Part shown: piece by piece, positions 19,844 through 36,591 of the stretch | Layout of the letters: each line of letters begins with the position of its first letter | Numbering within the stretch: the first letter of the stretch is position 1 | From: an uncultured Gammaproteobacteria bacterium | GTDB taxonomy: Bacteria; Patescibacteriota; Microgenomatia; UBA1406; GWC2-37-13 | NCBI GenBank assembly: GCA_964412815.1 | Contig: CAYPQF010000038.1 | Coordinates: forward strand, 11,284 to 75,283 | Direction of reading: 5' to 3' | Length of the DNA: 64,000 bases | The notes under the pieces: generated by a model | Seen by the model: only the letters and a program-made list of their open reading frames with translations | Told to the model about the DNA's origin: nothing | Database searches by the model: none | Position numbers and translations under genes: made by a program

Positions 19844-20800
19844 ATGGATTACACTCAACTAGAACAACTGATTAACCACCCACAAAAATCTGTCTTAGCA
19901 TTACACCGGAGTCCCGACGGGGATTCGATCGGGAGTAATCTGGCCTTTTACCACCTGCTCAAGTCCAAGGGGCATACCGTCACACTGTACTCAAAAGACG
20001 AAGTACCTGAGTATCTCGCGTTTCTGCCCGGTACAGATCAGGTCCAAGTGCAGTTTCCGGAAGACATCAGATTCGACCAGTACGACACATTCTGGGCAAT
20101 TGATATGGCAACCCTGAACATGATCGGCGCGGAGATTACTCTGCCGGAACAGCTACAGGTCGTGAATATTGACCATCACATCTCCAACCCGGCATGGGGC
20201 ACCGTCAACTTAATTGAACCAACCGCGATTGCAGCATCCGAAGTCTTAACCAAGATGTTCCAGGCTCTCAAGATTGAGATTACCACCGATATGGCAACCT
20301 GTCTGATGACCGCGCTGGCAACCGATTCCGGATTTTTTAAGTACTGCCGCACACCGGAATCGTTCCGGATTGCCGCAATTTTAATGGAGAGCGGCGCCAA
20401 CTACGAAAACATCGTGTATCAGATTATGCAGAAGACCCGTGTCGAAGATCTCCAGTTTTTGGGTGTGGCACTGGAGCGGCTCACGATTTATGAAAAACAG
20501 AAAGCCGCCATCATTACGATCCCGTTGGATATCTATAATGCGTACCGTTCAGAAGGAGAGTCAACTGATATTCTTAACAGCTACACTTCTACCATTGATG
20601 GAACCGATTTTGGCGTGGTGATCACCGAAAAAGAACTCAACCAGTTCCGGATCTCGTTCCGCTCTCGTACCCCGGGCTACGATGTCTCAGCACTCGCAGC
20701 ACAACTGGGCGGGGGCGGTCACAAGGCTGCAGCTGGCGCACGTATCGAACGAAACTCGATTGAAGAAGCGGTCGAGGCTGTGCTGGCGCTGGTCAAGTAA
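19844..20800 (+). CDS. nrnA: DHH/DHHA1 phosphoesterase (NrnA-type oligoribonuclease/pAp phosphatase)
   Basis: HRSPDGDSIGS, NIDHH and GGGHKAAAG motifs. Confidence 0.8.
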   Translation: MDYTQLEQLINHPQKSVLALHRSPDGDSIGSNLAFYHLLKSKGHTVTLYSKDEVPEYLAFLPGTDQVQVQFPEDIRFDQYDTFWAIDMATLNMIGAEITLPEQLQVVNIDHHISNPAWGTVNLIEPTAIAASEVLTKMFQALKIEITTDMATCLMTALATDSGFFKYCRTPESFRIAAILMESGANYENIVYQIMQKTRVEDLQFLGVALERLTIYEKQKAAIITIPLDIYNAYRSEGESTDILNSYTSTIDGTDFGVVITEKELNQFRISFRSRTPGYDVSALAAQLGGGGHKAAAGARIERNSIEEAVEAVLALVK

Positions 20801-20803
20801 CTA

Positions 20804-21820
20804 CTACACAAACGTGACCGGCGGGGTGATCCCTTTTGAGGTAACAATCTCGCCTATCTGCCGGGCATCAGGCAACTGTTTGAGAACAGACGCGGCTGAA
20901 CGTGCCGGCACTACCAGACACATCCCGATCCCCATATTCAGCGCATGAAACATCTCTTCCTCTGCGATCTGACCTTCCTGCTGAATCAGGGTAAAGACTG
21001 GATGACGCTCCCAGGAAGCAGGCTTTAACTGCGCAGTACAGCCTTCCGGAATAATCGCTCCCAGTTTACCGGGTAATCCACTCCCGGTGATATGGGCAAT
21101 GCCATGGACCGGTACCCCCGCACGCAAGACAACCAGAACCTCGCGAACATAGATGCGGGTCGGCGTAAGCAGTACTTCTCCCAGTGTTCTTCCGCGGAGC
21201 AGTTCAGGCTTATCATATAGGCTGTATGTTGAGAGTAATAGTTTGCGAACCAGGGTATAACCGTTGCTGTGAATGCCGCTGGAGGGAATCCCGATCACCA
21301 CATCTCCCCTGGTAATTGCAGCACCGGTAATCAGATCAGTCTTCTCTACTACACCAATCGCAGTGGCGGCCAGATCATACTCATCCTGTTGATAGATATC
21401 CGTCAGTTCGGCAGTTTCGCCACCGATAATACTACAATTGGCAAGCTGACAGCCAGCCACGACACCTTCCATGATCTGTTGTGCTATCTCCGGCACAATC
21501 TTTTGCATTGCCACATACGGCAAAAACACCAGCGGTTCGGCACCGCGGCGCACCAAATCGTTGACACACATTGCCACGAGATCAATTCCGATTGAGTCGT
21601 GTTTTTGGAGCTCGATTGCAATCTTGAGTTTCGTACCCACCCCGTCTGTCGCACCTAGCAAGAGTGGTTTTTTATAAGTGGCAAACCGGGCATCAAACGC
21701 AGCGATACCGCCGATTTCCGTTACTTCGGCCCGGTAGGTTTGGCGGGATTGTTGCTGAGCAGACTGAGAAGCCACATCTCCTGCTTCAATATCTACACCG
21801 CTGTCTTTATAGGTTTTCAT
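20804..21820 (-). CDS. purM: phosphoribosylformylglycinamidine cyclo-ligase (AIR synthetase)
   Basis: YKDSGVDIEAGD start and PurM-type N/C domains. Last gene of the pur operon. Its ATGA start overlaps the purC stop. Confidence 0.9.
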   Translation of the reverse strand: MKTYKDSGVDIEAGDVASQSAQQQSRQTYRAEVTEIGGIAAFDARFATYKKPLLLGATDGVGTKLKIAIELQKHDSIGIDLVAMCVNDLVRRGAEPLVFLPYVAMQKIVPEIAQQIMEGVVAGCQLANCSIIGGETAELTDIYQQDEYDLAATAIGVVEKTDLITGAAITRGDVVIGIPSSGIHSNGYTLVRKLLLSTYSLYDKPELLRGRTLGEVLLTPTRIYVREVLVVLRAGVPVHGIAHITGSGLPGKLGAIIPEGCTAQLKPASWERHPVFTLIQQEGQIAEEEMFHALNMGIGMCLVVPARSAASVLKQLPDARQIGEIVTSKGITPPVTFV

Positions 21821-22800
21821 AGGTTGAGATAGGTGGTGAGGGTACTAATGATTCGTTCTTCGATCGGATATGGGTACTCAGGAAACGTCTTGCCGGTTAG
21901 CTTCTCGTAGACTGCCATATAGCGCTCTGCTACCTGCACAATCAACTCTTCGGACATGGGGGGAGGATTGCCATCTCCGGTATAGCCTTTTTCCGCGTAC
22001 CAGAGCCGCAAAAACTCTTTATCAAAGTTTTCCGGTTCCTGTCCCGCTGTTCTTCGTTCTTCGTAGGTTTGGGCTATCCAGAAGCGCGATGAGTCAGGCG
22101 TATGAATCTCATCCATAATCATCAACTCTCCGTCACAGATACCAAACTCGTACTTGGTATCGACCAGTATCAAGTCCTGATCCCGGCAGCGGGCCGCCCC
22201 AAATGCAAAGAGCGCCAGTGCAGCCTGTTCCATCTGGGTGTAGATCTCCTCGCTTACCATCCCTTGAGACAGAATCTGTTCTCTGGTCAGCCGTTCGTCA
22301 TGTCCATTGGCGCCGCCACCATGCGTAGTGGGAGTGATTACGGGTTGTGGCAGTTGATCGTTTTTATGGAGCCCGTCAGGAAAATCTACTCCATAGATGG
22401 TCCGCTCTCCCTGTTGATACGAATGCCAGATAGAGGTTTTGGTCACTCCGGACATATACCCCCGGACAACCATCTCGACCGGGATCGGGTCACAGTTTTT
22501 GCAGATCATGACGTTTGGGTCCGGTACCGCAATCATATGATTGGGAATAATATGCCGGGTCTGTTCAAACCAGAACTGAGAGAGGAGTGTGAGCACAGTC
22601 CCCTTATAGGGGATGCGTCCGAGAATGACATCAAATGCCGATTGCCGGTCTGTTGCGATGAGTACCCGATCGTGCGGGCGGACATAGATATCGCGTACTT
22701 TCCCCTGCTGTTTTTCCATTGGTGCCTGTCGGGAAACCGGCAGGGAAACTGTTTCGAACGTTTGCGGAATGGACTGTCGAATACGATCCTGACTGATCAT
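21817..22800 (-). CDS. purC: SAICAR synthetase (long form)
   Basis: GKVRDIY and [11 protein letters not shown] motifs. 4-nt overlaps on both sides. Confidence 0.9.
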
Positions 22801-23366
22801 TGATGAGTAGTAGAACTGGTAAGTGTTGAACCATCTGTTTTGGAAACGGTGCGCGGGGCATCTATGGAACCCGCTCCATGGGCACTCACTGCGGCTGCTT
22901 TTTCCTCAACGGAAGTACGCATTGCTTCTTTAAATGCGGTGAGGCGGGAATAGAGGTCAGGTACGTGGGTTGCGAGAATCTGCACCGCGAGAATGCCGGC
23001 ATTGCGGGCGCCGTTGATCGCGACCGTCGCGACGGGCACACCCGGCGGCATCTGGACAATCGAGTAGAGCGAGTCTATGCCGTTCATAGCCTTTGACTGG
23101 ACCGGCACCCCGATTACTGGCAGACTGGTAAGTGCGGCAACCATACCCGGAAGATGCGCGGCACCGCCGGCTCCGGCAATGATCACCTTGAGTCCCCGGT
23201 CAACGGCAGTTTTCGCATACTCAACCATCCGTTCGGGTGTTCGATGGGCCGAGACGATCGTCAGTTCGTACGGAAGTTGAAATTCATCAAGAAGTCCGGC
23301 TGCTTCTTTCATAACCGGCAGATCCGAGTCTGATCCCATAATGATGCCAATCTGTGGCTTCTGCAT
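22797..23366 (-). CDS. purE: N5-CAIR mutase (class I PurE) with ~30-aa C-terminal tail
   Basis: [14 protein letters not shown] and [12 protein letters not shown]. It is paired with purK. Confidence 0.9.
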
Positions 23367-23369
23367 ACT

Positions 23370-24524
23370 TTATTGTACTGAAATCGTAATAGTGTTTCGC
23401 ACCTCTTCTGCGAGCGCTTCTGCTGCGATCACCGTCGCAGCAAGCACGGTAATATGCCCCATCTTGCGACCGGGCTTTTCCTCTGTTTTTCCATACCAGT
23501 GCAGGTACACCTCCGGATGGTGTTTGAGGATCTCCAGATTCCCCAATTGAGCCGGAGCAACTTTTACCCCGAGAATATTTTTCATCACTGCGGCCTGAAC
23601 TGAGGGACGGATAGCGGTACTGCCAACCGGCAGTCCGGTAATGGCACGCAGGTGGTTCTCAAACTGCGATGTTTTACAGGCTTCGATCGTATAGTGACCT
23701 GAGTTATGAACCCGGGGCGCAATTTCATTCAGGAGGATACCTTCCACGGTCTGGAACAGCTCAATTCCGAAGACACCGGCACCTGGAAGTACATGAAGTG
23801 CACTTGTTACCAGTGTCTCAATCTGCTGCTGTTCGCGGGCAGAGAGTGCGGCCGGAAGCCGTACTACATCACACACATTGTTCTGCTGAACTGTCTCGAC
23901 TACCGGATAGAAGTGCACCTGTCCGTCTTTCTCTTTCACCACCATCACTGCCAGTTCCCGGGTAAAAGGCACATCCCGTTCGACAAAGAGCCCCCGGGTA
24001 TCCCGGGAAAATTCGGCAAATGCCGGCTCGATATCCGATGCCGACCGGATGACCCGGTTTCCCTTTCCATCATAGGAGGCAAAAGATTGTTTGAGGTGGA
24101 GCGGATATCCCCAGTCTGTGGCAGCCTGTGTTAAGTCCGCACTACTGGTAACCGCGCGAAATGGAGCAACCGTCACTCCATGCGTTGATACCACTTCTTT
24201 TTGTTTTAGTTTGTTCTGGATCAGGGAGATGGCCCGGGGATGGGGCTGTATTTCCACTCCTTCGTCGTGCAGTTCCTGAAGGGTTCTGGCTGAGACATGT
24301 TCCAGTTCGATGGTGATCAGATCACACTGCTGTGCCAGCGTATGGATTGCTTCAGAGTCTTCGTAGCCACCCGGAAGATGGGTAGCTCCGGCAAGCACGG
24401 CGGGCGCCTGAGGCAGTGGGTCCAGCACGGTGATATCAAACCCCAGTTGACGCGCGTACGGCACCATCATCTGCGCCAGTTGTCCGCCACCGATTATCCC
24501 GATATGGTGCCGTTTTTTTTCCAT
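23370..24524 (-). CDS. purK: N5-carboxyaminoimidazole ribonucleotide synthetase
   Basis: IGIIGGGQLAQMM and an ATP-grasp core, immediately upstream of purE. Confidence 0.9.
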   Translation of the reverse strand: MEKKRHHIGIIGGGQLAQMMVPYARQLGFDITVLDPLPQAPAVLAGATHLPGGYEDSEAIHTLAQQCDLITIELEHVSARTLQELHDEGVEIQPHPRAISLIQNKLKQKEVVSTHGVTVAPFRAVTSSADLTQAATDWGYPLHLKQSFASYDGKGNRVIRSASDIEPAFAEFSRDTRGLFVERDVPFTRELAVMVVKEKDGQVHFYPVVETVQQNNVCDVVRLPAALSAREQQQIETLVTSALHVLPGAGVFGIELFQTVEGILLNEIAPRVHNSGHYTIEACKTSQFENHLRAITGLPVGSTAIRPSVQAAVMKNILGVKVAPAQLGNLEILKHHPEVYLHWYGKTEEKPGRKMGHITVLAATVIAAEALAEEVRNTITISVQ

Positions 24525-25945
24525 GCAGTTAGGGCGTGAGAAATGATATCTGCCATCTGTCGGGCATGAGGAGCGGCCTGACCAATGTGATGCAAGGGAT
24601 CAAACGCGCTGGAGATAGCTTGGGAAGAGCAGTACTTTGCAATCTTCGGATCGTTGGTGATCAACTGCTGCAGCGGATTATCCTGTCCTTGTGCAATTGC
24701 ATCCCAGGCTGTCATCGCATGCTGTTTAAGCACTTCGTGGAGTTTTTGCCGGTTTCCCCCGTGTTTGACTGCCTGCATTAAGACCCCTTCGAGCGCGGAG
24801 AACGGGGCATATTTGTGCAGGTTCTGGGCTATCGCCCGCTCATCGATAGTCATCTGTTCGACCAGACGGATCGCGGTCTTCAGAATCTCACTCACTGCCA
24901 GAAACGCATCGGGGACCACCAGGCGGCGATTGGCCGAATCATCCAGGGTACGTTCCAGGTAGGAGTGTTGTACATTTTCGTGGAGTACAACCGGTAACTG
25001 GGCTACATACCGGGCCAGTGAACATATTTTCTCTGACGCTACCGGGTTTCGCTTAAATGGCATGGCGGACGACCCCACCTGTTGTTTTTCAAACGGCTCA
25101 CGCCATTCACCAAACGCCGGGGACTGCAGAATTCTCAGGTCCGCGGCAAACTTGGCGATAACTGAGGCGATCCCTGCCAGCGACTCGATAATCTGAACTT
25201 CGTGCATTCTGCTCCCGATCTGCGTAGATACCGGAGCAGCAGTTAGCCCCAGTTTCGAGAGTACCGCTGCCTCCATCTCTTCCGGGTTCATGGGGGAATC
25301 GTGCAGGAGAGCGGTATAACTCGCCATCGATCCAACTGCTCCTTTCATTCCTTTGGCACGCAGTTTTGATTTGACGGTAAGCAGCTGGTCGAAGGTTGTA
25401 AGCAGTTCCTGGGCATAAAACGCAAAGCGATATCCTACCGTGGTTGGTTCTGCCGGTTGCAGATGGGTGTAGGCCATACAGGGCAGATCGGCGGTATCGT
25501 GAATCCGTTTTCTGAAGGCTGTCAACAATGCGGCTGTCTGTTCTTCTATCAGCGCGAGCGCTTCTTTCAGCCGGAGCATCTCAGCGTTATCAGTTATGTC
25601 CATACTGGTTGCTCCCAGATGGAGCTTCCCGCCGCCTTTTTTAGCTTTTTCAGCATACTCGGTGATTGCGGCAAAGACATCGTGACGGGTTTGTTGCTCG
25701 ATCTCCTGAATTCGTTCAATGTCGATATCCCGTTCGTGATACTGGAGATCATCCAGTTCTTCGTGGGAGATCAACCCGGCTTTAGACTGTACGGTCGCAA
25801 GGGTCACCCAGATTCTGCGCCAGAGTTCTACTTTGTGAAGTTCGCTAAAGACTGCGCGCATCTCAGGGGTGCCATATCGCCAGGAAAAGGTAGATTGATA
25901 GGATGCAGAGGGAGCAACTTCTTCGGTTGACTGCCGTGTGCTCAT
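24494..25945 (-). CDS. purB: adenylosuccinate lyase
   Basis: Fumarate-lyase signature GSSAMPFKRNP. Start set at MSTRQ (ATG 25945), forming an ATGA overlap with the folD stop. The 67 codons upstream in the ORF track run antisense-free through folD and are not credible. Confidence 0.9.
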   Translation of the reverse strand: MSTRQSTEEVAPSASYQSTFSWRYGTPEMRAVFSELHKVELWRRIWVTLATVQSKAGLISHEELDDLQYHERDIDIERIQEIEQQTRHDVFAAITEYAEKAKKGGGKLHLGATSMDITDNAEMLRLKEALALIEEQTAALLTAFRKRIHDTADLPCMAYTHLQPAEPTTVGYRFAFYAQELLTTFDQLLTVKSKLRAKGMKGAVGSMASYTALLHDSPMNPEEMEAAVLSKLGLTAAPVSTQIGSRMHEVQIIESLAGIASVIAKFAADLRILQSPAFGEWREPFEKQQVGSSAMPFKRNPVASEKICSLARYVAQLPVVLHENVQHSYLERTLDDSANRRLVVPDAFLAVSEILKTAIRLVEQMTIDERAIAQNLHKYAPFSALEGVLMQAVKHGGNRQKLHEVLKQHAMTAWDAIAQGQDNPLQQLITNDPKIAKYCSSQAISSAFDPLHHIGQAAPHARQMADIISHALTAWKKNGTISG

Positions 25946-26793
25946 GCGTGTTCCGGAGCCTTCTGCTGCAATGCTGCCTCGACTACGTTTTTGAGCAGGA
26001 AGGTAATGGTTAACGGTCCAATCCCATTGAGGGTGGGACAGTACAATTTTGCTTTCTGGGCAATCTCTTCTTCGTGAATGTCCCCAAAGAGCTGCGTTTC
26101 TCCATCCACTTCTTTTGCATCTACACCTACACCGATTACATAGCAACCTTCTTTGATATTGGAACCATGTACGATATGTTCTTTTCCAACAGCCGAGATC
26201 ACCAGGTCACCAGAACGGATTATCTCATCCGGATTCTGAGTAGTTGAGGAGACACAGACTGGCTCAAATCCTTTTTTCTTAAGCAGCGTAAGGGTGGGCT
26301 GGCCCGCGGTTCTGCCTTTTCCCAGTACGACAATTTTTTTTCCTGCGAGAAATGCTTCCGGCGACGGAAAACCTTCGATCCGGGAAAACTCTGCAATCAT
26401 CTCCCAGATAGCCAGCGCCGTTGCTTCGGTAAACGGGGATTCCGGCAGAAACCCGTCCACATCCTTTTCAGGAGCGACCTGTTGAATCAGCTCTTCGGCT
26501 GGCCACGACTGGTAGACCGGCAACTGAATAATCATCCCGTGGATGGCTGGATTGATATTTGCGGATTGTACATACGAACGGAAGGTCTCCAGCTCCTGTT
26601 CCTGAAACCGGACAACCGTCGCGGTAATTCCCAGTTTAGTTGCTACCTTCGCTTTGAGTGAGATGTAGACTTCGGAGCTCTGGTTACTGCCGGCACGTAA
26701 AATAACCAGATGAGGAGCCAGTTCGTGTTCACGAATAGTTGCTGCCAGTTCTTCGCGGATTCGTTTTGCAATGGGCTTTCCTTTTACAATCAT
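25942..26793 (-). CDS. folD: bifunctional 5,10-methylene-THF dehydrogenase/cyclohydrolase
   Basis: 283 aa. The KGKPIA...IR start, VVLGKGRTAGQP (Rossmann loop) and GIGPLTI near the C-terminus fit FolD. Confidence 0.85.
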   Translation of the reverse strand: MIVKGKPIAKRIREELAATIREHELAPHLVILRAGSNQSSEVYISLKAKVATKLGITATVVRFQEQELETFRSYVQSANINPAIHGMIIQLPVYQSWPAEELIQQVAPEKDVDGFLPESPFTEATALAIWEMIAEFSRIEGFPSPEAFLAGKKIVVLGKGRTAGQPTLTLLKKKGFEPVCVSSTTQNPDEIIRSGDLVISAVGKEHIVHGSNIKEGCYVIGVGVDAKEVDGETQLFGDIHEEEIAQKAKLYCPTLNGIGPLTITFLLKNVVEAALQQKAPEHA

Positions 26794-26801
26794 GAGTACT
26801 A

Positions 26802-27908
26802 TTAGCTGATAATGTGATCCAGTTTATTTTGTTCTACTGCCTGCTTAATTTCCAGAGCGACACGCTCTCCTACCGGAACCGGTCGCCGGTACAGATATCC
26901 GGCGTACGGGGTAGCTGCAATGCCGGGGGAACCGGGCATTCGCGGAGAAACGTCAATCACTACAATATCTTTTTTGGGTGGGCCGGCGGTGATAATCGAC
27001 TGGAGCGCGAACGGACCGACCACTCCTCCCTCCACCATCGCGGCTGCGGCCGTAACAAACCGTTCTCCCATCGAAAAGGCCGGTTCCAGGAGCGATTCGA
27101 GCACCGTCACCGCGATATGTCCTGCTTCTTCATACTGTACCGGTACTTTGCGTAACAGCTCAATCTGGTAATCCGCCGGAGTACGCATAAATCCCTCCAG
27201 ATTGGTCTGTCGCCGGGTATCGGTACCCAACAGCTCCAGCCTTCCGGAAAGCGGGGAATAGAAAAAGTTAAAGTTCACATGAGCGCCCAGAATAAACTCC
27301 TCGATCACTGCTTTTTCCAGTTGTTTCTCGGTAAAGACACCTTCCTTTAGTTTCTGTTCGGTAACCCGCAGATACTCAGACGGGCTATCCACCAGAAAAA
27401 ATGCTCTCTCAAAGCCCCGTTCCTGCTCCAGTACTTTTACAATGCACAAGCGATCGATGGTATGTGGATCGGCAAACTGAAGCGGAAACTGAATGCCGGC
27501 TTTTTGCAATAGATCATATTGGTTAAACTCGACTCCCCGTTCCTCGATCTTGAGCAGGTGTTTATTACCGAAGATCGGGCACAAAAACTTGGTCTCGATA
27601 CCTTCGTAATCAAAGTTCAGATAGACCTCAAACGAGCGATGCGGAATAAAGATGGCGTTCCGCTCTACCAGCTGTTTCTGGATACCCTCCCGCAGGATAT
27701 CGGTAAAATGTTCGACGATCATCACCTCGTCCACACAGCCCAGATCACCGTTGGTTTTGTAATAGGTGTCGTAGGTCTTTTCGCGTCCGGCAATCGAGAT
27801 CACCAGTGTGTTAAACCCGAGTTTTTTTGCACCTGCACAGATATCCAGGGCGCTATGGCTGCCGAGCGTTGCGATGGTAATTGGTTTGGCAGGATCGATG
27901 GTATACAT
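26802..27908 (-). CDS. PurP-family ATP-grasp protein, divergent paralog (FAICAR synthetase-like)
   Basis: [40 protein letters not shown] and the C-terminal ERVALEIKQAVEQNKLDHIIS run parallel to archaeal PurP (MJ0136-type). Confidence 0.75.
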   Translation of the reverse strand: MYTIDPAKPITIATLGSHSALDICAGAKKLGFNTLVISIAGREKTYDTYYKTNGDLGCVDEVMIVEHFTDILREGIQKQLVERNAIFIPHRSFEVYLNFDYEGIETKFLCPIFGNKHLLKIEERGVEFNQYDLLQKAGIQFPLQFADPHTIDRLCIVKVLEQERGFERAFFLVDSPSEYLRVTEQKLKEGVFTEKQLEKAVIEEFILGAHVNFNFFYSPLSGRLELLGTDTRRQTNLEGFMRTPADYQIELLRKVPVQYEEAGHIAVTVLESLLEPAFSMGERFVTAAAAMVEGGVVGPFALQSIITAGPPKKDIVVIDVSPRMPGSPGIAATPYAGYLYRRPVPVGERVALEIKQAVEQNKLDHIIS

Positions 27909-27911
27909 AGG

Positions 27912-28931
27912 TTAGCTGACAATGGTATCTAAGGTATTCTGTTCTATCGCGATTTTGATCTCCCGGGCAATACGACGGCCGGTACTCATCGGTTCGTTAA
28001 AGTACAGCCAGGAATACGGCGAGCCTTCGGTGTACAGATTGGTTCCGGCGACAATCCGGCACGAAACTTCGATGGTATAAAACTTTTGTTGGTCCGTGAC
28101 GATTGTTTCCATACAAAACGGTCCGAACATACCGCGGGGGTCAATGAGCTTTTTTGCGGTATTCACCATCCGCATACCCATCTCTTGGGCTTCGGGAAGC
28201 ATCGATTCACGCAACACCAGCGGACTGTTGCCGATCACCACATAGCTCGGCTCGATCATAATCCGCTCCTGATCATGCGGAGGGATACGTCCCAGGGAAT
28301 CGACATTGGTTTCGTACCGGCGGTCGACCGAGAGTATCTCTATCCGGTCCATTACGTGCGAGTAAAAATAATGGACATAGACTGGTACACCAACAATATA
28401 CTCCTGAATAACATAATCTTTGATATTAAAATCAAACTCTTTGACTTTCCGTTCGAAATCAACCCGGTTTTGGGCATAAAAATAACCGCGCCCTCCCGCT
28501 GCACCGTGCAGTTTCACGATTACGGGGCGATCAATTTCGTCGGCCGAGGCAAAATGCTTCGTGGTAAGAATGCCTGCGGCATCAAACCATTCCTGCTGTT
28601 TTTCGCGGTTGGACTCCCAGTCCAGTACCCCTTTGCTGCCGTAGTACAACACCTTCATCTGCTTATTTTTTTCTACTCCCAGATAGGCGACAAAACTGCC
28701 GTGCGGAATCAGAATGACATTTCGCTTGATCAGATCCGGCTCCAGCTTGTCGAACTGCTTGAAAGAAGGAACGCTAATAACATCATCGATAAACGGAAAC
28801 TGACGATAAAAGGCGACACGATCGGGAGTGGTGATGAGCAGTGTCTTGAACTGTTCGTCTTTGGCACCTTTGAGAATCTGTAACGAGGAGTGACTACCGA
28901 GGGTTGCAATGGTGTAGTCTGTTTTCTTCAT
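27912..28931 (-). CDS. purP: 5-formaminoimidazole-4-carboxamide ribonucleotide (FAICAR) synthetase, archaeal type
   Basis: Near full-length resemblance to archaeal PurP as I recall it: [80 protein letters not shown]...N.LD.IVS. Start moved to MKKTDY (28931). Confidence 0.85.
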
Positions 28932-29021
28932 CACGGTAATTATAGGTAGCCTTACGGGAAAAGGCAAATTGTAATTTCTGTCGGTGCGCGTTCCCCCGCT
29001 CTGATCCGCGCCCGTTGTGTG

Positions 29022-29870
29022 TTAGCCAAAATACGCCACGGCATTCTGAAACAAGGTAAATCCGGCGGCATACTCCGGGTTCGGTGTTCCCGACCGGACA
29101 TGGTGTTCTTTGAGGATCTGCCAGTGTGGCTGCTGGGTAAAAAACATACCCCGTTCGGGGTGCGGCATCAAACCCAGTACCCGTCCGGACGGATCGGTTA
29201 TACCCGCAACATCATCCAGCGCACCATTGGGATTGGCCGGGTAGTCCTGATACTGACAGACCGTTCCGCAGGTATACCGCAGCGCAATCTGATTGTTTTT
29301 TTTGAGTCGGACCAGCACCTCCGGTTCTACATAGAACTTTCCTTCCCCGTGCGCGATGGGGAGAGAGAACTCGGTTAATCCCGTGAGCCAGGGAGACTGA
29401 TTGGCAACAACCAGATCTACCCAGCGGTCCAGATAGAGTCCGCCACTGTTTTTCATGAGGGCGGCAGAACGCTCTCCATATGCGTTATCGCATGATGGTA
29501 CCAGCCCCAGATTTACCAGAATCTGAAAGCCGTTACAGATACCGATCGTCAGCGTATCTCGCTGCACAAACTGAGAGAGCTGCTCCCAGAGGGTGTTCCG
29601 GAGCTTATTGGCATATGCGTTCCCGGAGCCGGTATCGTCTCCATACGAAAACCCGCCGGGAATTGCAGCAATCTGAAACTGTTTCAGTTTTTCCGGCGCG
29701 GCAATCAGATCATTAATATGGATAATCGTGGGAGTGGCACCAGCCAGTTGGAATGCATGAGCGGTCTCTTCTTCGCAGTTTAGACCATAGCCGGCAAAGA
29801 TAAGCGCGGCAGGCTGCACACCAGATTGACGAACAGCGGATTGCGCTTGTGATTTGATTGTTTTTTTCAT
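29022..29870 (-). CDS. purQ: FGAM synthase, glutaminase subunit
   Basis: GICNGFQIL (Cys nucleophile), AHGEGKF and MPHPER. Start at MKKTIK (29870) forms an ATGA overlap with the purL stop. Confidence 0.85.
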   Translation of the reverse strand: MKKTIKSQAQSAVRQSGVQPAALIFAGYGLNCEEETAHAFQLAGATPTIIHINDLIAAPEKLKQFQIAAIPGGFSYGDDTGSGNAYANKLRNTLWEQLSQFVQRDTLTIGICNGFQILVNLGLVPSCDNAYGERSAALMKNSGGLYLDRWVDLVVANQSPWLTGLTEFSLPIAHGEGKFYVEPEVLVRLKKNNQIALRYTCGTVCQYQDYPANPNGALDDVAGITDPSGRVLGLMPHPERGMFFTQQPHWQILKEHHVRSGTPNPEYAAGFTLFQNAVAYFG

Positions 29871-32842
29871 AATGGTTGGGCAAATCGTGATCGATAGGTC
29901 TTGAGCAGATGTTCGACACTGGTATCGATAACGGGTAACTGCTGCTGATGACGGGTACCGAGTAGTGCCACCCGTGATGTTCGGCTGACCGTGCCAATAC
30001 ACGCAATTGATTGGTCTGCCATAATGGTCTCAAACTGCGCCTTATGCTGCGGCGCAACAGTAACAACAATGCGTCCCTGGCTTTCCGAAAATAACAGATG
30101 ATGGTAACTGGACCAGCTACCGGGGATGGCATCCAGCTCCAGCTGCAAGCCCTGTTTTCCTGCCATCGCCATCTTGGCAAACGCAATTGCCAGCCCGCCC
30201 CGGGTCACGCTGATGGCTGAGGCAATAATCTGTTGCTGGACTGCCAGATGGTAGCGGCGATATAACTCGCGGTTGATTTCGGCGTCTACGCACGGGACAG
30301 ATGCTCCTACAAAACCTTTCATGGCGTAATACTCGGATCCACCCAGTTCATCGTCTGTTGCTCCCAGCACATAGACCAGATCATCTGCGAACTTGGTATC
30401 AATCGAGATCGCCTGAGAAACATCGTCAATAATGCCAATACTGGAGATCAACAGTGTGGGTGGAACTGAGATCTTGACGGGATGGCCTTCGGCTGAGTAG
30501 CCGGTAAAGTCGTTAAACATACTGTCTTTTCCAGAGATATATGGGGCATTATATGCCACCGCATAGTCGTAACACGCTTCTACTGCCTGTTTAAGCTGAT
30601 ACAACCGTTCGGGTTCGTTGGCGCTGCACCAGCAGAAGTTATCCAGCAGAGCGATTTTATCCGGGTGGATTCCGGCAGCTACCAGATTCCGGATGGCGGT
30701 ATCGAGACTGCTTGCCGCCATATGGTAGGTATCGATATCGCTGTAGCGTGGGTACAGACCCTGGGACAGGCCGACTCCCTTTTGAGCTGTCAGAAGGGGG
30801 CGCGTAATGGTGACCTCGGCGTTCACCCGCCCCCGGCCCTGCAACGGCTTGAGCACCGATCCGGCCTGAACTTCGTGATCGTACTGCTGCGACACAAACT
30901 CCGTGCTGGACAACGAGTATCGTTGTAACAGGCGGAGCAGATCGTCGGTGTAGGATTCCTGCATCGGCAATCGAGGCTCCGGAGCTGTTGAGACGACAGT
31001 ATCGGTCTCCAACGGCCGTGATGGCAAACCATCGTGGAGAAATTCCATGCTCATGTCCAGAATAATGCGTTCGTGATGTTCCACAACACACCGTCCCGAA
31101 TCGGTAAAGGTACCAATAACCGTTGCCTCTACCCCCCGGGCGGCTAACAGACTATGGAGCTCTTCCCAATGCTCCGGTAGGACGGCAAGCGTCATCCGTT
31201 CCTGTGATTCGGAGATCCAGATCTGCCAGGGGGACAGCCCCGGGTACTTTAAGGGAATACGTTCCAGTTGTACCACGAAACCGCCGGATTCTTTGGCCAT
31301 CTCTGCAACAGAACAGGATAGTCCTCCGGCACCGTTATCGGTGATGCTGGTGTAGAGCCCGCGATCACGCGCCTCTTTGATGAGCGCATCGCTGAGTTTT
31401 TTCTGGGTAATGGGATCGCCAATCTGTACCGCCGTAGCCGGACTGCCTTCGTCCAGTCCTTCCGAAGAAAAAGTTGCCCCATGGATTCCGTCCAACCCTA
31501 CCCGTCCGCCGACCATCACAATGTAGTCGCCGGGGCGGGCCTGCTTCTGATGTGACAGGCGTTGATCCGGCGGCAGAGTACGCGGGATCAATCCAACGGT
31601 ACCCACAAAGACCAGCGGTTTACCCTGATAGCGATCATCAAAGAGCATAAAGCCCTGTGGTGTCGGGATACCCGAGCAGTTGCCTCCTTCGTTAACGCCG
31701 GCAATCACCCCGTCCATAATTCGTCGAGGCGAGAGCATCGGCATGGTCAGTCCGGCATCCCGGTAGAGCGGTCTTTCCAGGTCCGGAGTGGCAAAACAGA
31801 ATCCGTACCGGTTGATTACCGGCTTGGCCCCAAGCCCGAATCCCAAAGCATCTCGATTTACCCCTACAATGCCGGTGATGGCCCCGCCAAACGGATCCAG
31901 TGCCGATGGTGTATTGTGTGTCTCTACCTTGTCAGTTACCAGATACTCGTCATCAAAGCTTATAGCACCGGCATTATCGGTAAAAACCGAGACACAAAAC
32001 GGCTGTGTCTCTCCCTGTGCGGTGCGCGCCTGCATCACATCCCGGGTAGCCCGCTTGATGTAATGTCGGAACAGCCCATCTTCGATCTCGTCAATCGGAT
32101 CGGCAAAGATAGTGTGTTTACAGTGTTCCGACCAGGTCTGCGCGATAGACTCCAGTTCGATATCGGTGGGGTCCCGGCCCAGCTCTGTAAAGTAGGCCTG
32201 AATTGTTTTCATAGAGGCCAGGTCTAGTGCGAGTGGCCCACGTCGACTGCCATCCGGATTGGGAATCCCTTCTTTACCAATGCGCCTCAGTTCCTCGTCC
32301 GGAACCCGGAGCGATACATTGGTCACCTCTTGTTGTTCTGCGAGATGGACTTCCGGAACCGGCAGTACATGCGCCCCCTTCCGGTAGCCAGCTCCGTTTT
32401 GTAGACTGATACGTTGAATCAGCGGGTTGTAAAGGGTTGCTGCAAAGGTCTGAACGGTTGCTCTGGGAACGGGATCATGAATCAACAGTAGCCGCGATGA
32501 ATAGACTGTCTGTGTATCAGAGAGCGTCAGGTGCAGCCCGTCAATTAAGGTTTCCCGTGCGGTGGTTCCAATGTTATCCGTGACTCCGGGCAGATATCCG
32601 ATCTCCACCGCCCACTCAACCGGTTGCGTACCAACTGGCCTGTCATATAAGGCCTGCTGGACAATCGGATTGTGCAGCAACCGGACTGCTGCTTCTTTTT
32701 GGGAACTGGTTAGGGGAATGGTAAGGGTGTAGACATCAACCACCGAGACCGATGCACCGGTTAATTGAGTCTGAAACGCGGCACCGCGGGCATCGCCGGT
32801 GTGCGTTATCACTTCGATTCTGGTACTGTGTTGTTGCTTCAT
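29867..32842 (-). CDS. purL: FGAM synthase synthetase subunit fused to two N-terminal PurS-like repeats (PurS-PurS-PurL)
   Basis: 991 aa. The PurL landmark WSEHCKHTIF sits near residue 240 rather than the ~50 I recall for small PurL. Residues 1-150 contain two ~75-aa repeats ending LLHNPIVQQALY and LYNPLIQRISL, which are PurS-like. No separate purS is present in the operon. Confidence 0.85.
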   Translation of the reverse strand: MKQQHSTRIEVITHTGDARGAAFQTQLTGASVSVVDVYTLTIPLTSSQKEAAVRLLHNPIVQQALYDRPVGTQPVEWAVEIGYLPGVTDNIGTTARETLIDGLHLTLSDTQTVYSSRLLLIHDPVPRATVQTFAATLYNPLIQRISLQNGAGYRKGAHVLPVPEVHLAEQQEVTNVSLRVPDEELRRIGKEGIPNPDGSRRGPLALDLASMKTIQAYFTELGRDPTDIELESIAQTWSEHCKHTIFADPIDEIEDGLFRHYIKRATRDVMQARTAQGETQPFCVSVFTDNAGAISFDDEYLVTDKVETHNTPSALDPFGGAITGIVGVNRDALGFGLGAKPVINRYGFCFATPDLERPLYRDAGLTMPMLSPRRIMDGVIAGVNEGGNCSGIPTPQGFMLFDDRYQGKPLVFVGTVGLIPRTLPPDQRLSHQKQARPGDYIVMVGGRVGLDGIHGATFSSEGLDEGSPATAVQIGDPITQKKLSDALIKEARDRGLYTSITDNGAGGLSCSVAEMAKESGGFVVQLERIPLKYPGLSPWQIWISESQERMTLAVLPEHWEELHSLLAARGVEATVIGTFTDSGRCVVEHHERIILDMSMEFLHDGLPSRPLETDTVVSTAPEPRLPMQESYTDDLLRLLQRYSLSSTEFVSQQYDHEVQAGSVLKPLQGRGRVNAEVTITRPLLTAQKGVGLSQGLYPRYSDIDTYHMAASSLDTAIRNLVAAGIHPDKIALLDNFCWCSANEPERLYQLKQAVEACYDYAVAYNAPYISGKDSMFNDFTGYSAEGHPVKISVPPTLLISSIGIIDDVSQAISIDTKFADDLVYVLGATDDELGGSEYYAMKGFVGASVPCVDAEINRELYRRYHLAVQQQIIASAISVTRGGLAIAFAKMAMAGKQGLQLELDAIPGSWSSYHHLLFSESQGRIVVTVAPQHKAQFETIMADQSIACIGTVSRTSRVALLGTRHQQQLPVIDTSVEHLLKTYRSRFAQPL

Positions 32843-34125
32843 GAGAGTGCGTGATTTCCAATATCTGTCCGGAACTGCATCCCTTCAAAATGGATACCGG
32901 CAGGTCCAATGGCGGCATATACTTTTTGTAACGCATCAAAGAGAGTCTCATCCCAGGCGGTTACGGCAAGCACTCTTCCGCCGGAGCTCACCACCGAGCC
33001 CTGTTTAAATGCCGTACCCGCATGAAATACCTGTATATCCGGATCGACCGTTTCCCGGTCCAGACCGGCAATAGGGACACCCTTTGCGTACGGGCCGGGG
33101 TATCCTTCCGCTGCCAGGATCACACAGACGGCACTGCCCTGCTTGAACGAGACCATCTCCGGTGTCAAACGACCTTCAACACACGCCAGCAGTAGTTCAT
33201 ACAGATCAGATTCCAGTAACATCAGCAGTGGTTGCGTTTCCGGATCACCAAAACGGGCATTAAACTCAATGACCTGTGGTCCAGTAGCGGTCATCATCAG
33301 GCCGGCATAGAGCAAGCCTTTGTACGGGATACCCTGATCAGCCATCCCTTTGATCGCCGGCTGGAGAATACTTTCCTGAATACGTAAGATTTCTTCGGCA
33401 GAGGCAAAGGGAGTTGGCGCATAGACACCCATACCACCTGTATTCGGCCCCTGATCGTGGTCGTAGATACGTTTATGGTCCTGTGCCGGCAACAGCGGGA
33501 CGATCGTCTTTCCATCTGTCAGCGCCAGTAACGAAACTTCCTGTCCTGACAACTTCTCTTGTAACACAATCTGTTGCCCTGCCGCTCCGGCAACGTGTTC
33601 GATCATCAGCTGGTCGATGGCCGCCACGGTTTCTTCAACTGTTTCCGGGACAATCACTCCTTTGCCGGCCGCCAGACCACTGGCCTTGACCACAAATACA
33701 CTGCCGGACTGCTGAACAAACGCTTTTGCTGCAGCTGCGTCTGTAAAAGAGCGCGAAACCGGATGGGGAATAGCATACTGCTCCAGAAAGTCAGCGGTCC
33801 AGGCTTTGCTGGTCTCCAGCTGTGCAGCCGCCTTGGTGGGACCAAAGATTTTTAAGCCCTGTGCTTCAAACGCGTCGACGATACCGGCTGCAAGGGGCAC
33901 CTCCGGACCGACCACCGTCAAGCCAATCTGCTCTGCCTTGGCAAACGCGAGTAACTGCTCAATATTGTCTGCCGCTATCGCAACGTTGGTACCAACTTCG
34001 ACGGTCCCCGCGTTGCCCGGTGCGATATAGACCTGCTCGACTGAAGGAGACTGTTGGAACTTCCAGGCGAGTGCGTGTTCGCGTCCGCCGGAACCGATTA
34101 CTAGAACTGAATGGGTATTAGCCAT
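32839..34125 (-). CDS. purD: phosphoribosylamine-glycine ligase
   Basis: VLVIGSGGREHALAWK and an ATP-grasp core. Confidence 0.9.
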   Translation of the reverse strand: MANTHSVLVIGSGGREHALAWKFQQSPSVEQVYIAPGNAGTVEVGTNVAIAADNIEQLLAFAKAEQIGLTVVGPEVPLAAGIVDAFEAQGLKIFGPTKAAAQLETSKAWTADFLEQYAIPHPVSRSFTDAAAAKAFVQQSGSVFVVKASGLAAGKGVIVPETVEETVAAIDQLMIEHVAGAAGQQIVLQEKLSGQEVSLLALTDGKTIVPLLPAQDHKRIYDHDQGPNTGGMGVYAPTPFASAEEILRIQESILQPAIKGMADQGIPYKGLLYAGLMMTATGPQVIEFNARFGDPETQPLLMLLESDLYELLLACVEGRLTPEMVSFKQGSAVCVILAAEGYPGPYAKGVPIAGLDRETVDPDIQVFHAGTAFKQGSVVSSGGRVLAVTAWDETLFDALQKVYAAIGPAGIHFEGMQFRTDIGNHALS

Positions 34126-34912
34126 GAGGGTATAACTGAATTGCTAACTGTTTAACATTGTTGAGAATCGAATACTGCGCTGGTGGGATCAGCGGCGTAC
34201 TTCTGGTGAGCACTGGTACCTCTTTGCCCTTACCGAATGCTGTCAGTGTCTGTATCACGGTCTGATGTTCCACCGGCAACAAAGCCTTCTGCAGCTCTGC
34301 GACAGCAGAAACAACGGCTTCCCTGTTCACCTGGATTTCTGCGCTTACCCCAAGGTCTGCGCTCACCGGTTCTTGCACCGTCAACGCAGGCACTGGCACC
34401 TGTGTGCGGCAGAGCACTCCACCTTCGTCAAAACCTGTTGTCACCTGATGCGTGGTGGCTTCTGTCCAGTAGTCACTCCCGGTGTACCCGCAATACAAAA
34501 TTCGCGCTGCCAGTACCCGACGCCCATACATTCCGCTGCCCCCAAAGTCATGTCCGTGCTCCGGATCCAGTGGCCCGGGATGCTGGTTGATGATCCTACC
34601 GGAATACTGCTCGATCAGGTTGCCGGGCGTGAGCGGCAGCCACCCGTTCTGAGAGATCAGCGTGACCTGATATCGTCTACAGACTTCCAATAGCTTGTCT
34701 CCAAAGGCTGCCGCGTCGGCAGCATCCGTTTTGCGGACCACTTCTACCGGAATACCCCGTTCGCGCGCCTTCTCGATACCGGGTGCGGTGGTACGGCTAC
34801 TGATAACTACGACCGGCTCGATGCCCGGCAGGTTCCCCGCGCGACCGGCATCGACAATCGCAGCCATGGTACTGCCGCTTCCGGAAATGAGTATTGCCAG
34901 ATTATGTTTCAT
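34118..34912 (-). CDS. purN: GAR formyltransferase, divergent, with insertion and C-terminal extension
   Basis: ILISGSGS, INQHPG and THQVTTGFDEGG correspond to the PurN motifs. At 264 aa it is longer than the ~200 aa I recall as typical. Confidence 0.7.
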   Translation of the reverse strand: MKHNLAILISGSGSTMAAIVDAGRAGNLPGIEPVVVISSRTTAPGIEKARERGIPVEVVRKTDAADAAAFGDKLLEVCRRYQVTLISQNGWLPLTPGNLIEQYSGRIINQHPGPLDPEHGHDFGGSGMYGRRVLAARILYCGYTGSDYWTEATTHQVTTGFDEGGVLCRTQVPVPALTVQEPVSADLGVSAEIQVNREAVVSAVAELQKALLPVEHQTVIQTLTAFGKGKEVPVLTRSTPLIPPAQYSILNNVKQLAIQLYPHG

Positions 34913-36434
34913 ACGCGTATTCCATACCTGTCCGGGTGACCGGATACTTACCGGTTATACAGCCACCACACCCGCCGTTTGCCAGAAAAATATCGTCAGC
35001 ATCGGTGACCTTGGCAATCTGACCGTTTTTAATTCGTGCTTTTAATAATCCAATATTCGAGATGTAGTTGACACTGGTGGCACCGATCTCCGCGGCAATC
35101 CGTACTGGATCTCCCTGGTGCTTTGCCGCGATCAGCTCTTCGTGAGACCGGATACTGACTCCCAGATGGCACTTATGACGCACCTGCGGAAACCCGATTA
35201 CCCAGTGCACTTCTTTTGCTCCTAAACTATAGACTGCCCGGGTAATCTGTTCTGAGACATTACCTCGGACTATCGAGTCATCACACAACACCACCACCTT
35301 GTCCCGCCATAAAAACCGGTCCGGAATAATCGAGAGCTTTCCCAGCACCTTTGATCCGATTGCCGTTCTATCATCGTCCCGCATAAAGAGGCGTTGTGCA
35401 CCGTTGGAATCAAAGTGATCGCGAATAATCAACTGCTTGAGCGGGAGTCCCATGGCACCAGCATAGCCACAGCCGATAGCCAATCCTGAATCAGGCACCC
35501 CTACTACAAAATCAGCGTGCGAAATCGGGGACTCATCCGCGATAATCTCACCACACCGCTCTCTGAACGCATGAACCGATAAGAGGTTTTCTTCATTTGT
35601 TTCCGGAGTGCCATTGAGCTGTCGGGAAAATCGTGAATCCGGACGGGCAAAATAGCTCCACTCAAAATCGCAGAAGTGTCTTTTAGCATCAGGATTTGTC
35701 GTGATCACCGTCATCTCTCCCTTACGAAACCGGATCAGCTCACCACAGGATACCTCGCGGAGAAAGGTTGCGCCCGCTTTGTCCAGCGCGTAGGTCTCTG
35801 ACGCAATCATCTTGATATCATCAATTTCACCGATAAAGAGCGGTCTCATGCCATGATTGTCCCGACAAACGTACAAATCATCACATACCCCGATCATCAG
35901 ACTGTATGCTCCTTTCACAAATGAGAGGACCTTAAGAATCCGCTGATCCCAATCGCCTTCCATCTCGGCCAGCATTCGGGTAAAGATATAGGTGTCACTC
36001 GCACCGTCATCAAACTGAATCTCAGTTTGACGCTTGAGGCCTTCGACATCGACAAACTCTCCATTATGGACCACGGCAACATGTCTTCCGTCATTGGTGT
36101 TGGCGATGCAGGGCTGGATATTGGTGTCACTATAATCACCGTTGGTGCCATAGCGGCAGTGCACCATCGACCAGATCTGTGGCATATCCAGTTGGCGTAT
36201 AACCTGAGGAGTAAAGATTGTTTTAAGAAGGCCGTCCTGTTTGAAGCTTTTCATCCCGGACGGTGTTTGCAATACATAGCCGGCACCGTGCTGGCCGCGA
36301 TGTTGTACACCGCTGGCTGCCTGGATGGCAATTTCCGTTAACCGCTCGTATCGCGGTGTCGATATACCGACAATTCCGCATTTTTCTAGCAGCGGCTTGG
36401 TTATCTCAATGGTATAGTCAGGTTTCCCTGGCAT
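34902..36434 (-). CDS. purF: amidophosphoribosyltransferase
   Basis: Propeptide MPGKPDYTIEITKPLLEK followed by CGIVGI (Ntn catalytic Cys). PRTase motif VVVLCDDSIVRGN. The GTG at 36467 is rejected because it lies inside the leader terminator hairpin. Confidence 0.85.
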   Translation of the reverse strand: MPGKPDYTIEITKPLLEKCGIVGISTPRYERLTEIAIQAASGVQHRGQHGAGYVLQTPSGMKSFKQDGLLKTIFTPQVIRQLDMPQIWSMVHCRYGTNGDYSDTNIQPCIANTNDGRHVAVVHNGEFVDVEGLKRQTEIQFDDGASDTYIFTRMLAEMEGDWDQRILKVLSFVKGAYSLMIGVCDDLYVCRDNHGMRPLFIGEIDDIKMIASETYALDKAGATFLREVSCGELIRFRKGEMTVITTNPDAKRHFCDFEWSYFARPDSRFSRQLNGTPETNEENLLSVHAFRERCGEIIADESPISHADFVVGVPDSGLAIGCGYAGAMGLPLKQLIIRDHFDSNGAQRLFMRDDDRTAIGSKVLGKLSIIPDRFLWRDKVVVLCDDSIVRGNVSEQITRAVYSLGAKEVHWVIGFPQVRHKCHLGVSIRSHEELIAAKHQGDPVRIAAEIGATSVNYISNIGLLKARIKNGQIAKVTDADDIFLANGGCGGCITGKYPVTRTGMEYAYET

Positions 36435-36453
36435 TACATCATGGCGGTAAATT

Positions 36454-36478
36454 AAAAAAACCCGCACATAGGCGGGCT
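36454..36478 (-). terminator. intrinsic terminator inside the pur operon leader (attenuator candidate)
   Basis: Minus strand reads AGCCCGCC-UAUGU-GCGGGU followed by U7. It lies 19 nt upstream of the purF ATG and downstream of the promoter. Confidence 0.65.
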
Positions 36479-36494
36479 AACTAAGTAATGATGT

Positions 36495-36547
36495 ATTGTC
36501 GTAAATAAACGGCATCGATGCCGTTGACAATTGCTTCGGTGCAATTG
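36495..36547 (-). promoter_or_regulatory. two perfect palindromes in the pur leader (RNA hairpins or operators)
   Basis: CAATTGC-N6-GCAATTG (36528-36547) and AACGGCATCGATGCCGTT (36508-36525). The second is extended by ATTGTC/GACAAT (36495-36500 / 36526-36531), which competes with the first for nt 36528-36531. Confidence 0.6.
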
Positions 36548-36561
36548 AGATTCATGCCACC

Positions 36562-36591
36562 ACTATACCCAATCAAATATCACGATTGCAA
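36562..36591 (-). promoter_or_regulatory. pur operon promoter
   Basis: TTGCAA (36586-36591), 18-nt spacer, TATAGT (minus strand, 36562-36567). The predicted 5' UTR is ~120 nt. Confidence 0.55.

Follow-up and report, generated by a model that had tools for sequence, protein, structure and literature searches.

Paired archaeal-type PurP proteins in the purine operon of a Patescibacteria-type bacterium in which no PurH was found

Introduction

By what route does a bacterium in which no PurH is found take 5-aminoimidazole-4-carboxamide ribonucleotide (AICAR) to IMP? The question is raised by a 64,000-nucleotide (nt) stretch of an uncultured bacterium of the candidate phyla radiation (CPR)/Patescibacteria type (positions 11,284 to 75,283 of contig CAYPQF010000038.1, GenBank assembly GCA_964412815.1; hereafter the window), whose purine operon carries side by side two genes of archaeal PurP type that we call purP-A and purP-B, and their products A and B. 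Judged by their diagnostic residues, A and B are the bacterial version of the archaeal PurP II and PurP III pair, and we consider it probable that they form an obligate two-protein module that would convert AICAR to FAICAR (5-formamidoimidazole-4-carboxamide ribonucleotide) with formate and ATP. The pair itself has long been known in archaea, and its bacterial version repeats the question raised there, concerning the role of the second PurP and the identity of the ring-closing enzyme.

Archaeal PurP proteins have been divided into types I (MJ0136), II (cluster Ib; PF1517), III (cluster II; PF0421) and IV, and FAICAR synthetase activity (EC 6.3.4.23) has been demonstrated for the type I protein MJ0136 alone (PMC3261824, PMC6486802). 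The defining marks of cluster II are a His replacing Asn258 (Mj numbering) and, at 161-165, a glycine-free loop with two additional residues (PMC3261824). Types II and III co-occur, one of each, in the same archaea (PMC3261824, PMC6486802); the single PurP types travel with PurO, and types II and III mostly occur without it (PMC3261824). PF1517 binds ATP and AICAR, and a heterohexamer has been proposed by Cruz et al. (PMC6486802). What types II and III do, and which protein is the crenarchaeal IMP cyclohydrolase, have been open questions from 2008-2011 onwards and still were in 2019 (PMC6797443, PMC6486802), when the cyclohydrolase was called 'still unidentified in Crenarchaeota' (PMC6797443); our literature search found no newer report. 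A survey of 1,403 complete genomes, also from 2019, placed PurP in archaea only (PMC6486802), a published view that the bacterial pair corrects. The same search found no paper linking PurP with the CPR or DPANN groups; sequence databases already label such bacterial proteins.

Results

Family and isoform of the two proteins

The two genes and their junction lie in the window as follows.
27912-28931, minus strand: purP-A, 339 amino acids (aa) from the ATG at 28931, an ATP-grasp protein of PurP II (cluster Ib) type
26802-27908, minus strand: purP-B, 368 aa, a protein of PurP III (cluster II) type
27909-27914, minus strand: A/B junction, a TAA stop and CCT (3 nt) followed by the ATG of purP-B, in frame

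The initial annotation had read these open reading frames (ORFs) as tandem PurP genes, and both frames, as well as the motifs that it quoted, were found at these positions. Its family assignment also held when a hidden Markov model search was run: the N-terminal domain (DUF1246) and the C-terminal domain (DUF1297) matched end to end, at 129 and 234 bits in A and at 131.5 and 195 bits in B (cut-offs 25 and 23.8), and no other ATP-grasp family scored better, such matches being marginal (ATP-grasp_3, 23 bits; CPSase_L_D2, 18 bits, below its cut-off). Both proteins also matched each of the six NCBIfam PurP models, with best scores of 379.4 bits for A and 259.6 bits for B. Against solved structures, A matched P. 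furiosus PF1517 best (2r84; full length, 327 bits, E 1e-96), with MJ0136 next (E 4e-88); the closest full-length match of B was to MJ0136 (2r7k; E 1e-65), more remote than that of A. The two proteins, which account for exactly two DUF1297 matches in the genome, share 32.7% identity and are not, to judge by their sequences, a recent duplicate.

Active-site residues assign each protein to an isoform. A keeps 'IGN' (Asn at Mj-258), the glycine loop 'AGGRG', His27, Ser94, Ser266 and Arg314; with Asn258, xGG(K/R)G at 161-165, the contact residues and PF1517 as its closest structure, it has the marks of PurP II (cluster Ib). B has 'AGH', with His at the position of Mj-Asn258, and 'VLEQERGFERA' (11 residues) where Mj has 'FPGARGGRG' (9 residues), so that its loop after Lys156 is two residues longer and lacks the glycines; His258 together with the longer, glycine-free loop marks PurP III (cluster II). 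Among the aligned sequences of the fetched loci (54 of A type, 57 of B type), His27, Lys156, Glu200, Asp226, Arg228, Asn232, Glu265, Ser266, Gly-Pro-Phe 292-294, Ser312 and Arg314 were common to both types. Near-invariant in the B type alone were Arg93, Glu159, Arg162, Arg164, Asn210, Arg229, Gln230, His258, Asp310 and Pro316, and a two-residue deletion in its GGTN loop removes the 'GTN' motif. His258 occurred in 57/57 B-type sequences, the B studied here has the consensus residue at 37/37 checked signature sites of its family, and it retains those residues (His27, Arg314, Ser266) to which contacts with the formyl group and the 5'-phosphate are ascribed. Since the B-type signature is near-invariant at active-site positions, B is on this alignment a conserved protein with a remodelled active site and not a decaying copy. 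The initial description of B as a divergent paralog with the same landmarks is therefore right as to the PurP landmarks, but B is not simply divergent: it is the ortholog of an ancient, tightly conserved PurP III (cluster II) protein.

In a joint tree, the A and B clades split at a support of 100, with MJ0136 and PF1517 on the A side and PF1517 grouping with Microgenomates-type A sequences (support 84). The locus sample behind this tree consists of CPR and DPANN sequences, which interleave in it, and holds no PurP III reference from a cultured archaeon. The A and B subtrees showed the same three groupings, which indicates that the two genes were inherited together. The nearest named homologues of A and B come from metagenome-assembled genomes (MAGs) of Patescibacteria/CPR; bacterial matches outside the CPR belong to Limnocylindrales, Methylomirabilota and Eremiobacterota, and databases label A-like and B-like bacterial proteins alike as formate--phosphoribosylaminoimidazolecarboxamide ligase (family) protein. 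As a separate observation on these records, the titles 'uncultured Gammaproteobacteria' or 'uncultured Methanosarcinales' of several MAG contigs (loci L004-L009, L011, L015, L022 and others) clash with the gene content and tree position of these contigs, which are CPR-like or DPANN-like, and look unreliable.

Purine and one-carbon genes in the rest of the genome

The assembly is a MAG of 1.80 Mb in 51 contigs, estimated to be 95% complete with 0.8% contamination, and the genome-wide results below apply to it. No match to PF01808, the PurH/AICAR formyltransferase (AICARFT) family, was found in it, and tblastn gave no match below E 0.01 when PurH from four other genomes of the phylum was the query. 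PurO (PF07826) was likewise without a match in the whole assembly, and no stand-alone IMP cyclohydrolase (IMPCH) domain of the methylglyoxal synthase (MGS) type was found genome-wide; the sole MGS-like domain belongs to an ORF of 1070 aa which has carbamoyl-phosphate-synthase-type ATP-grasp matches as well and which we read as CarB. No enzyme of steps 9-10 of the PurH, PurV, PurJ or PurO kinds was thus encountered at 95% completeness. The absence of PurH and PurO, first noticed in the window, extends to the entire assembly, a canonical purH elsewhere in the genome was searched for and not found, and the IMP cyclohydrolase step remains, as the initial annotation had it, without an assigned gene.

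The same annotation had proposed a hybrid pathway in which glycinamide ribonucleotide (GAR) formylation is folate-dependent and AICAR formylation formate-dependent. The gene content fits this scheme, since PurN (with its N-x-H...D motif), a single FolD, serine hydroxymethyltransferase (SHMT) and pyruvate formate-lyase (755 aa, 616 bits) are present and PurT, formate-tetrahydrofolate (THF) ligase and PurU were not found in the genome. The only match in the PurT search was a cross-match to PurK (166 bits against a cut-off of 502), and the formyltransferase domain occurs just in an Fmt-like gene and in the purN of the operon. Pyruvate formate-lyase can supply the formate.

On a neighbouring step of the pathway, four adenylosuccinate synthetases (three CPR, one DPANN) used as tblastn queries gave no significant purA match in the genome, which does have guaA and prs; AMP comes from salvage, or else purA belongs to the missing 5% of the genome.

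Operons of the nearest relatives

The pair lies within the following operon, every gene of which is single-copy in the genome.
20804-36467, minus strand: pur operon of 13 genes, purF-purN-purD-purL-purQ-A-B-folD-purB-purK-purE-purC-purM

We compared it with the nearest set of genomes, 41 of the same order; the sampled relatives' genomes measure 0.6-2.1 Mb and are thus CPR-sized. The pair occurs in five of the 41 (this genome, G003, G012, G033 and G037) and PurH in three (G004, G005 and G015), and no genome has both. A pur operon was confirmed in six genomes, with PurH in G005 and G015 and the pair in this genome, G012, G033 and G037, and never with neither. In G004, PurH has guaA and purA as neighbours, and purC is found on a different contig; the pair of G003 is on a short contig, and that genome gave no purC match. 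Two genomes have just a purC-like gene, with no other pur gene in the 20 kb fetched around it.

Within the family, PurH versus A plus B is the sole difference between the operon types. The operon of G005 reads purF-purN-PurH-purD-purL-purQ and that of G015 PurH-purD-purL-purQ-purB-purK-purE-purC, both of the PurH type, and that of G012 reads purF-purN-purD-purL-purQ-A-B-purB-purE-purC, of the PurP type; in G240, from another family, the order is A-B-PurH-purB-purE-purC. The pair had initially been said to occupy the operon position of purH, which these operons contradict: PurH of the same family is placed between purN and purD, which overlap in the window and leave no room there, and the pair between purQ and folD/purB. 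The claim that the pair replaces purH fits this genome, in which no PurH was found; the replacement is lineage-specific, and 37/69 of the carriers in the class and 22/28 of those in the phylum keep a PurH-type gene. An anticorrelation of PurH and PurP was accordingly rejected as a general rule, being true in the 41 nearest genomes and failing at class and phylum level.

Co-occurrence of the two genes in wider samples

Two samples of 401 genomes each were searched. In the class sample PurP occurred in 69 genomes, with two copies in 63 and one copy in 3; a PurH-family gene was also present in 37 and absent from 32. In the phylum sample PurP occurred in 28 genomes (two copies in 23, one in 3), of which 22 had a PurH-family gene and 6 had none. 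The three single-copy genomes of the class sample are split into 40 to 190 contigs, and in one of them the match stands at the end of a contig. No well-assembled genome was seen to have A alone. Most carriers thus hold one gene of each type, usually adjacent, as is expected of an obligate II/III pair. A lay upstream of B on one strand in 53/61 loci fetched from named genomes, which include Roizmanbacteria, Curtissbacteria, Peregrinibacteria, one Eremiobacteraceae and many DPANN archaea; in Curtissbacteria, purA is inserted between A and B. The usual neighbours of the pair elsewhere are purA, guaA, purB, purE and purC, that is, genes around the IMP node. When the ORFs of the 61 loci were clustered, no third conserved gene that could be a candidate cyclohydrolase emerged beside the pair, the recurring genes being just purA, guaA, purB, purE, purC, prs, a HAD phosphatase and unrelated genes.

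The PurH-type genes of the 37 class-sample carriers fall in two families. Family f10 accounts for 17/37, with mostly full-length genes that adjoin the pair (A-B-PurH in a row), and family f9 for 20/37, with an AICARFT-only gene that in five genomes stands beside a weak IMPCH/MGS-like ORF and, with it, looks like a split, permuted PurH. The 32 PurH-less carriers include all 16 carriers of family f173. Among 22 PurH-less carriers tested (at least 91% complete), PurO was found in 0/22 and purC in 21/22, and the pair occurs without any known cyclohydrolase in at least 23 genomes, the smallest of 0.8 Mb, from nine family-level groups of the phylum. The PurH-less state is therefore common and real, and 'the pair replaces PurH' describes a lineage-specific outcome.

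Two candidates for the ring-closing enzyme were rejected. FolD as a moonlighting cyclohydrolase was set aside because this genome has no other FolD, PurN depends on it, and most related operons lack it. The MGS-like domains of PurH-less carriers, considered as PurJ, lie in CarB-sized ORFs or fragments and in argininosuccinate synthase (ArgG)-like and aminoacyl-tRNA synthetase (aaRS)-like fusions; CarB alone is represented in this genome. In G037 and G503 (L087, 2423-4042 and 4256-5797; L088, 1143-2765), argininosuccinate synthase bears a C-terminal MGS-like domain, and in G037 a class-II aaRS-like protein bears one as well; these may be nucleotide-sensing regulatory domains, as in CarB.

Layout of the operon and its other genes

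Further features of the operon are listed below. The genes purN, purL, purQ and folD were named by Pfam/NCBIfam, and the others by translation and by tblastn matches in like order in the relatives' operons.
25942-26793, minus strand: folD, 283 aa, Pfam THF_DHG_CYH and THF_DHG_CYH_C, directly 3' of purP-B
29867-32842, minus strand: purL, 991 aa
32839-34125, minus strand: purD, overlapping purN
34118-34912, minus strand: purN-like formyltransferase, 264 aa, Formyl_trans_N 68 bits
28939-28967, minus strand: promoter-like TTGCCT-17-TATAAT in the purQ-A gap, 10/12 consensus match

The reading frame of purP-A is open upstream to a TTG at 28967; the ATG at 28931 was taken as the start because the resulting 339 aa match the length typical of homologues (337 aa). 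No Shine-Dalgarno-like stretch is found at the A/B junction, and the 3-nt spacing suggests that the translation of A and B is coupled. The 90-nt gap between purQ and A is the sole sizeable gap in the operon. It contains the top consensus match to a promoter within 20000-37000, with a -10 box that ends 7 nt before the ATG of A; the site might serve as an internal promoter, with a leaderless transcript beginning at purP-A, a lead only, since the total count of promoter-like sites in that interval is not above that in shuffles.

Several side observations concern the operon as a whole and its other products. Its G+C content is 52.6% against 46.8% for the genome, above all 309 genome windows of the same length, and in the two other genomes of the same genus no purC, PurP or PurH was found; the operon may have been acquired as a block, or lost as a block in the sister species. 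PurL has about 200 N-terminal residues ahead of the linker of formylglycinamide ribonucleotide amidotransferase (FGAR-AT), and the operon is without a separate purS gene; this extension may stand in for PurS. The purN-like protein has a C-terminal extension of about 85 residues and scores 79.8 bits against TIGR00639 (cut-off 150), with the N-x-H...D catalytic motif kept.

Discussion

Since the pair is embedded in a pur operon, is exchanged with PurH in sister operons and has neighbours from the IMP node elsewhere, we tie it to the AICAR-to-IMP segment. An obligate partnership is favoured over two independent enzymes because the two-copy rule holds even where PurH is present and because PF1517 is reported to be inactive alone despite binding ATP and AICAR (PMC3261824, PMC6486802). 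The sequence data show the family, the isoforms, the operon setting, the lack of alternative enzymes and the co-occurrence of the two genes; the substrate, A's requirement for B, the oligomer and any part in ring closure are inferred. In the scheme that we consider probable, A would be a canonical ATP-grasp catalytic subunit and B its obligate partner, with a remodelled and strictly conserved active site; the two would cooperate, probably as a mixed oligomer, in converting AICAR to FAICAR with formate and ATP, and would thereby take the role of PurH in this genome. Pyruvate formate-lyase would provide the formate, and GAR formylation would remain folate-dependent by way of SHMT, FolD and PurN. 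Ring closure to IMP would fall either to the pair or to an unrecognised enzyme, as none of the known IMP cyclohydrolases is encoded.

Several observations weigh against this scheme. P. furiosus type II and type III, each tested singly, are reported to have had no FAICAR synthetase activity (PMC3261824, PMC6486802). The FAICAR synthetase label given initially thus stands as far as the PurP family goes, and the activity that it implies is extrapolated from PurP I (MJ0136). In keeping with this, neither protein reached the NCBIfam equivalog level (PRK13278 models; cut-offs 482-603), A scoring 379.4 against 590 and B 259.6 against 556, so that by sequence A and B are members of the PurP family and not certified equivalents of the characterised enzyme. 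Many carriers keep PurH beside the pair (37/69 in the class, 22/28 in the phylum), and the pair is therefore not simply a PurH substitute. Three Peribacteria-like genomes (G222, G405, G145; loci L068, L069) have B only, with no A, PurH or purC found, at a syntenic site beside pgi, ruvA and an M23 peptidase gene. Of the two B-only copies examined, one is intact, which hints at a role for B alone, and one is decaying, with 11/37 signature residues changed; as proof of an independent function of B these genomes are ambiguous. A and B are unlinked, on different contigs, in two genomes, and a search for A-B fusions with both genes read through the in-frame TAA found none, the best 120 of 317 matches of at least 390 aa being single B-type proteins. 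(A 727-aa match, P0128, consists of an unrelated N-terminal region and an A-type PurP, and an apparent 804-aa B-PurB 'fusion' in L008 was rejected as an assembly gap of Xs.) The genome itself, finally, is an incomplete MAG.

A further step would be to regard the II/III pair as a complete, PurH-independent AICAR-to-IMP module in which PurP III catalyses or drives ring closure. We view this as possible and lean against it. In favour of ring closure by the pair, at least 23 genomes with the pair lack a known cyclohydrolase, and archaeal types II and III mostly occur without PurO; the features of PurP III proposed for it are His258, Arg93, Arg162, Arg164, Arg229 and the missing glycine loop. The idea is weakened because B keeps the residues of the ATP site and because the phyletic pattern is imperfect. 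If it is true, PurP III would be the long-sought third kind of IMP cyclohydrolase, serving Crenarchaeota, Thaumarchaeota, Pyrococci, some Thermococci and these bacteria.

A stricter division of labour, in which A alone is the FAICAR synthetase and B is a third kind of IMP cyclohydrolase, seems to us unlikely. It was raised by Brown et al. (PMC3261824), and would have the His at Mj-258 activate the carboxamide nitrogen, with His27 and Arg314 holding the formyl group. It agrees with the lack of any detected PurH, PurO or PurJ here and in 22 other carriers, 21 of them with purC, with the archaeal association of single types I and IV with PurO and of II plus III mostly with its absence (PMC3261824), and with the constitution of B, which keeps His27, Arg314 and Ser266 but always has His for Asn258 and no glycine loop. 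However, B also retains Lys156, Glu199/Glu200 and Asp310 of the ATP-grasp nucleotide site, none of which a simple cyclohydrolase needs, and the phyletic match in archaea is imperfect (PMC3261824). Moreover, PF1517, a type II protein like A, was inactive alone in the reports cited above, and genomes with A alone were not encountered, not even among those whose full PurH supplies the cyclohydrolase; that A needs B fits these facts better.

It is improbable that the pair, or at least B, has some other substrate and only a loose connection with de novo synthesis, whose last two steps would then be carried out by other proteins. Such a role could account for the pair being kept beside an intact PurH in many genomes, for DPANN loci with just purF-, purD- and purE-like de novo genes nearby, next to purA and guaA, for the B-only genomes without purC, and for the reported lack of in-vitro activity of types II and III. 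Yet the pair sits mid-operon between purQ and purB in several families, full operons without PurH need an AICAR formyltransferase and the pair is their sole gene difference from sister operons, PF1517 binds AICAR and ATP (PMC6486802), and one of the B-only copies is visibly decaying at 11/37 signature sites. It is highly improbable that A and B are redundant isozymes, both of them FAICAR synthetases and perhaps used under different conditions. Both are full-length members of the PurP family that databases annotate as the ligase (family), but at 33% identity they are separated by a deep split with a support of 100, B has its own near-invariant catalytic-site signature, and 63/69 carriers keep exactly two copies where single losses would often be expected. 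Least credible, and close to negligible, is a normal purH in the unassembled 5% with the pair as an extra formate-dependent route: the genome is a 51-contig, 95%-complete MAG and many relatives have the pair plus PurH, but those relatives have PurH as part of the pur operon (in family f1 between purN and purD, in f10 immediately behind B), both of these junctions are unbroken here and lack PurH, and 32/69 carriers of the class, including all 16 of f173, are equally PurH-less.

The bacterial pair offers advantages for settling the archaeal question. Its hosts have tiny genomes (0.8-1.8 Mb) with few hiding places for an unrecognised cyclohydrolase, and probably live at moderate temperature; natural swap controls exist in otherwise identical sister operons with PurH only, the pair only, or the pair followed by PurH; and the function can be tested directly by complementation of a purH deletion in E. 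coli. Among the sister genomes, G005, G015 and G419 have PurH only, this genome, G012, G801 and family f173 have the pair only, and family f10 has both. The automatic 'FAICAR synthetase' labels on B-type proteins rest on no experiment.

Comparison with known systems

The closest known counterpart is the archaeal II/III pair (PF1517, PDB 2r84-2r87; PF0421), with which A and B share the two isoforms and their diagnostic residues. There, too, one copy of each occurs, often adjacent and near pur genes (adjacent in Sulfolobales, Pyrobaculum and Korarchaeum), in genomes often without PurH, PurO and PurJ, and the function is biochemically unproven in both settings. The differences are that the host here is a CPR/Patescibacteria-type bacterium, that the pair lies inside a bacterial-style 13-gene operon with purN, folD and purK, and that the relatives' records come from groundwater and marine samples, for which we assume a moderate growth temperature; if so, heat-driven spontaneous ring closure would be a poor excuse for a missing cyclohydrolase. 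MJ0136 (PurP I, 2r7k) has the same fold and family, A has its substrate-contact residues and glycine-rich loop, and the proposed chemistry is the same (formate, ATP and AICAR to FAICAR). In contrast, MJ0136 is encoded by a single gene, forms a homohexamer, is active alone and has PurO as its partner, whereas here two diverged proteins occur and no PurO was found.

Bacterial PurH serves the same pathway segment, and in sisters of the same family it is present where the pair is absent. It differs in its unrelated fold, its dependence on 10-formyl-THF, its own cyclohydrolase domain and its slot in the operon (between purN and purD, against purQ and purB for the pair). A last parallel is provided by PurT and PurN of E. 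coli, where a formate-dependent ATP-grasp enzyme and a folate enzyme serve one formylation step and may coexist, as the pair and PurH do in 37/69 carriers. That case concerns step 3 and not step 9, and PurT is a single protein; in the genome described here, step 3 would be served by the folate enzyme and step 9 by the formate-type one.

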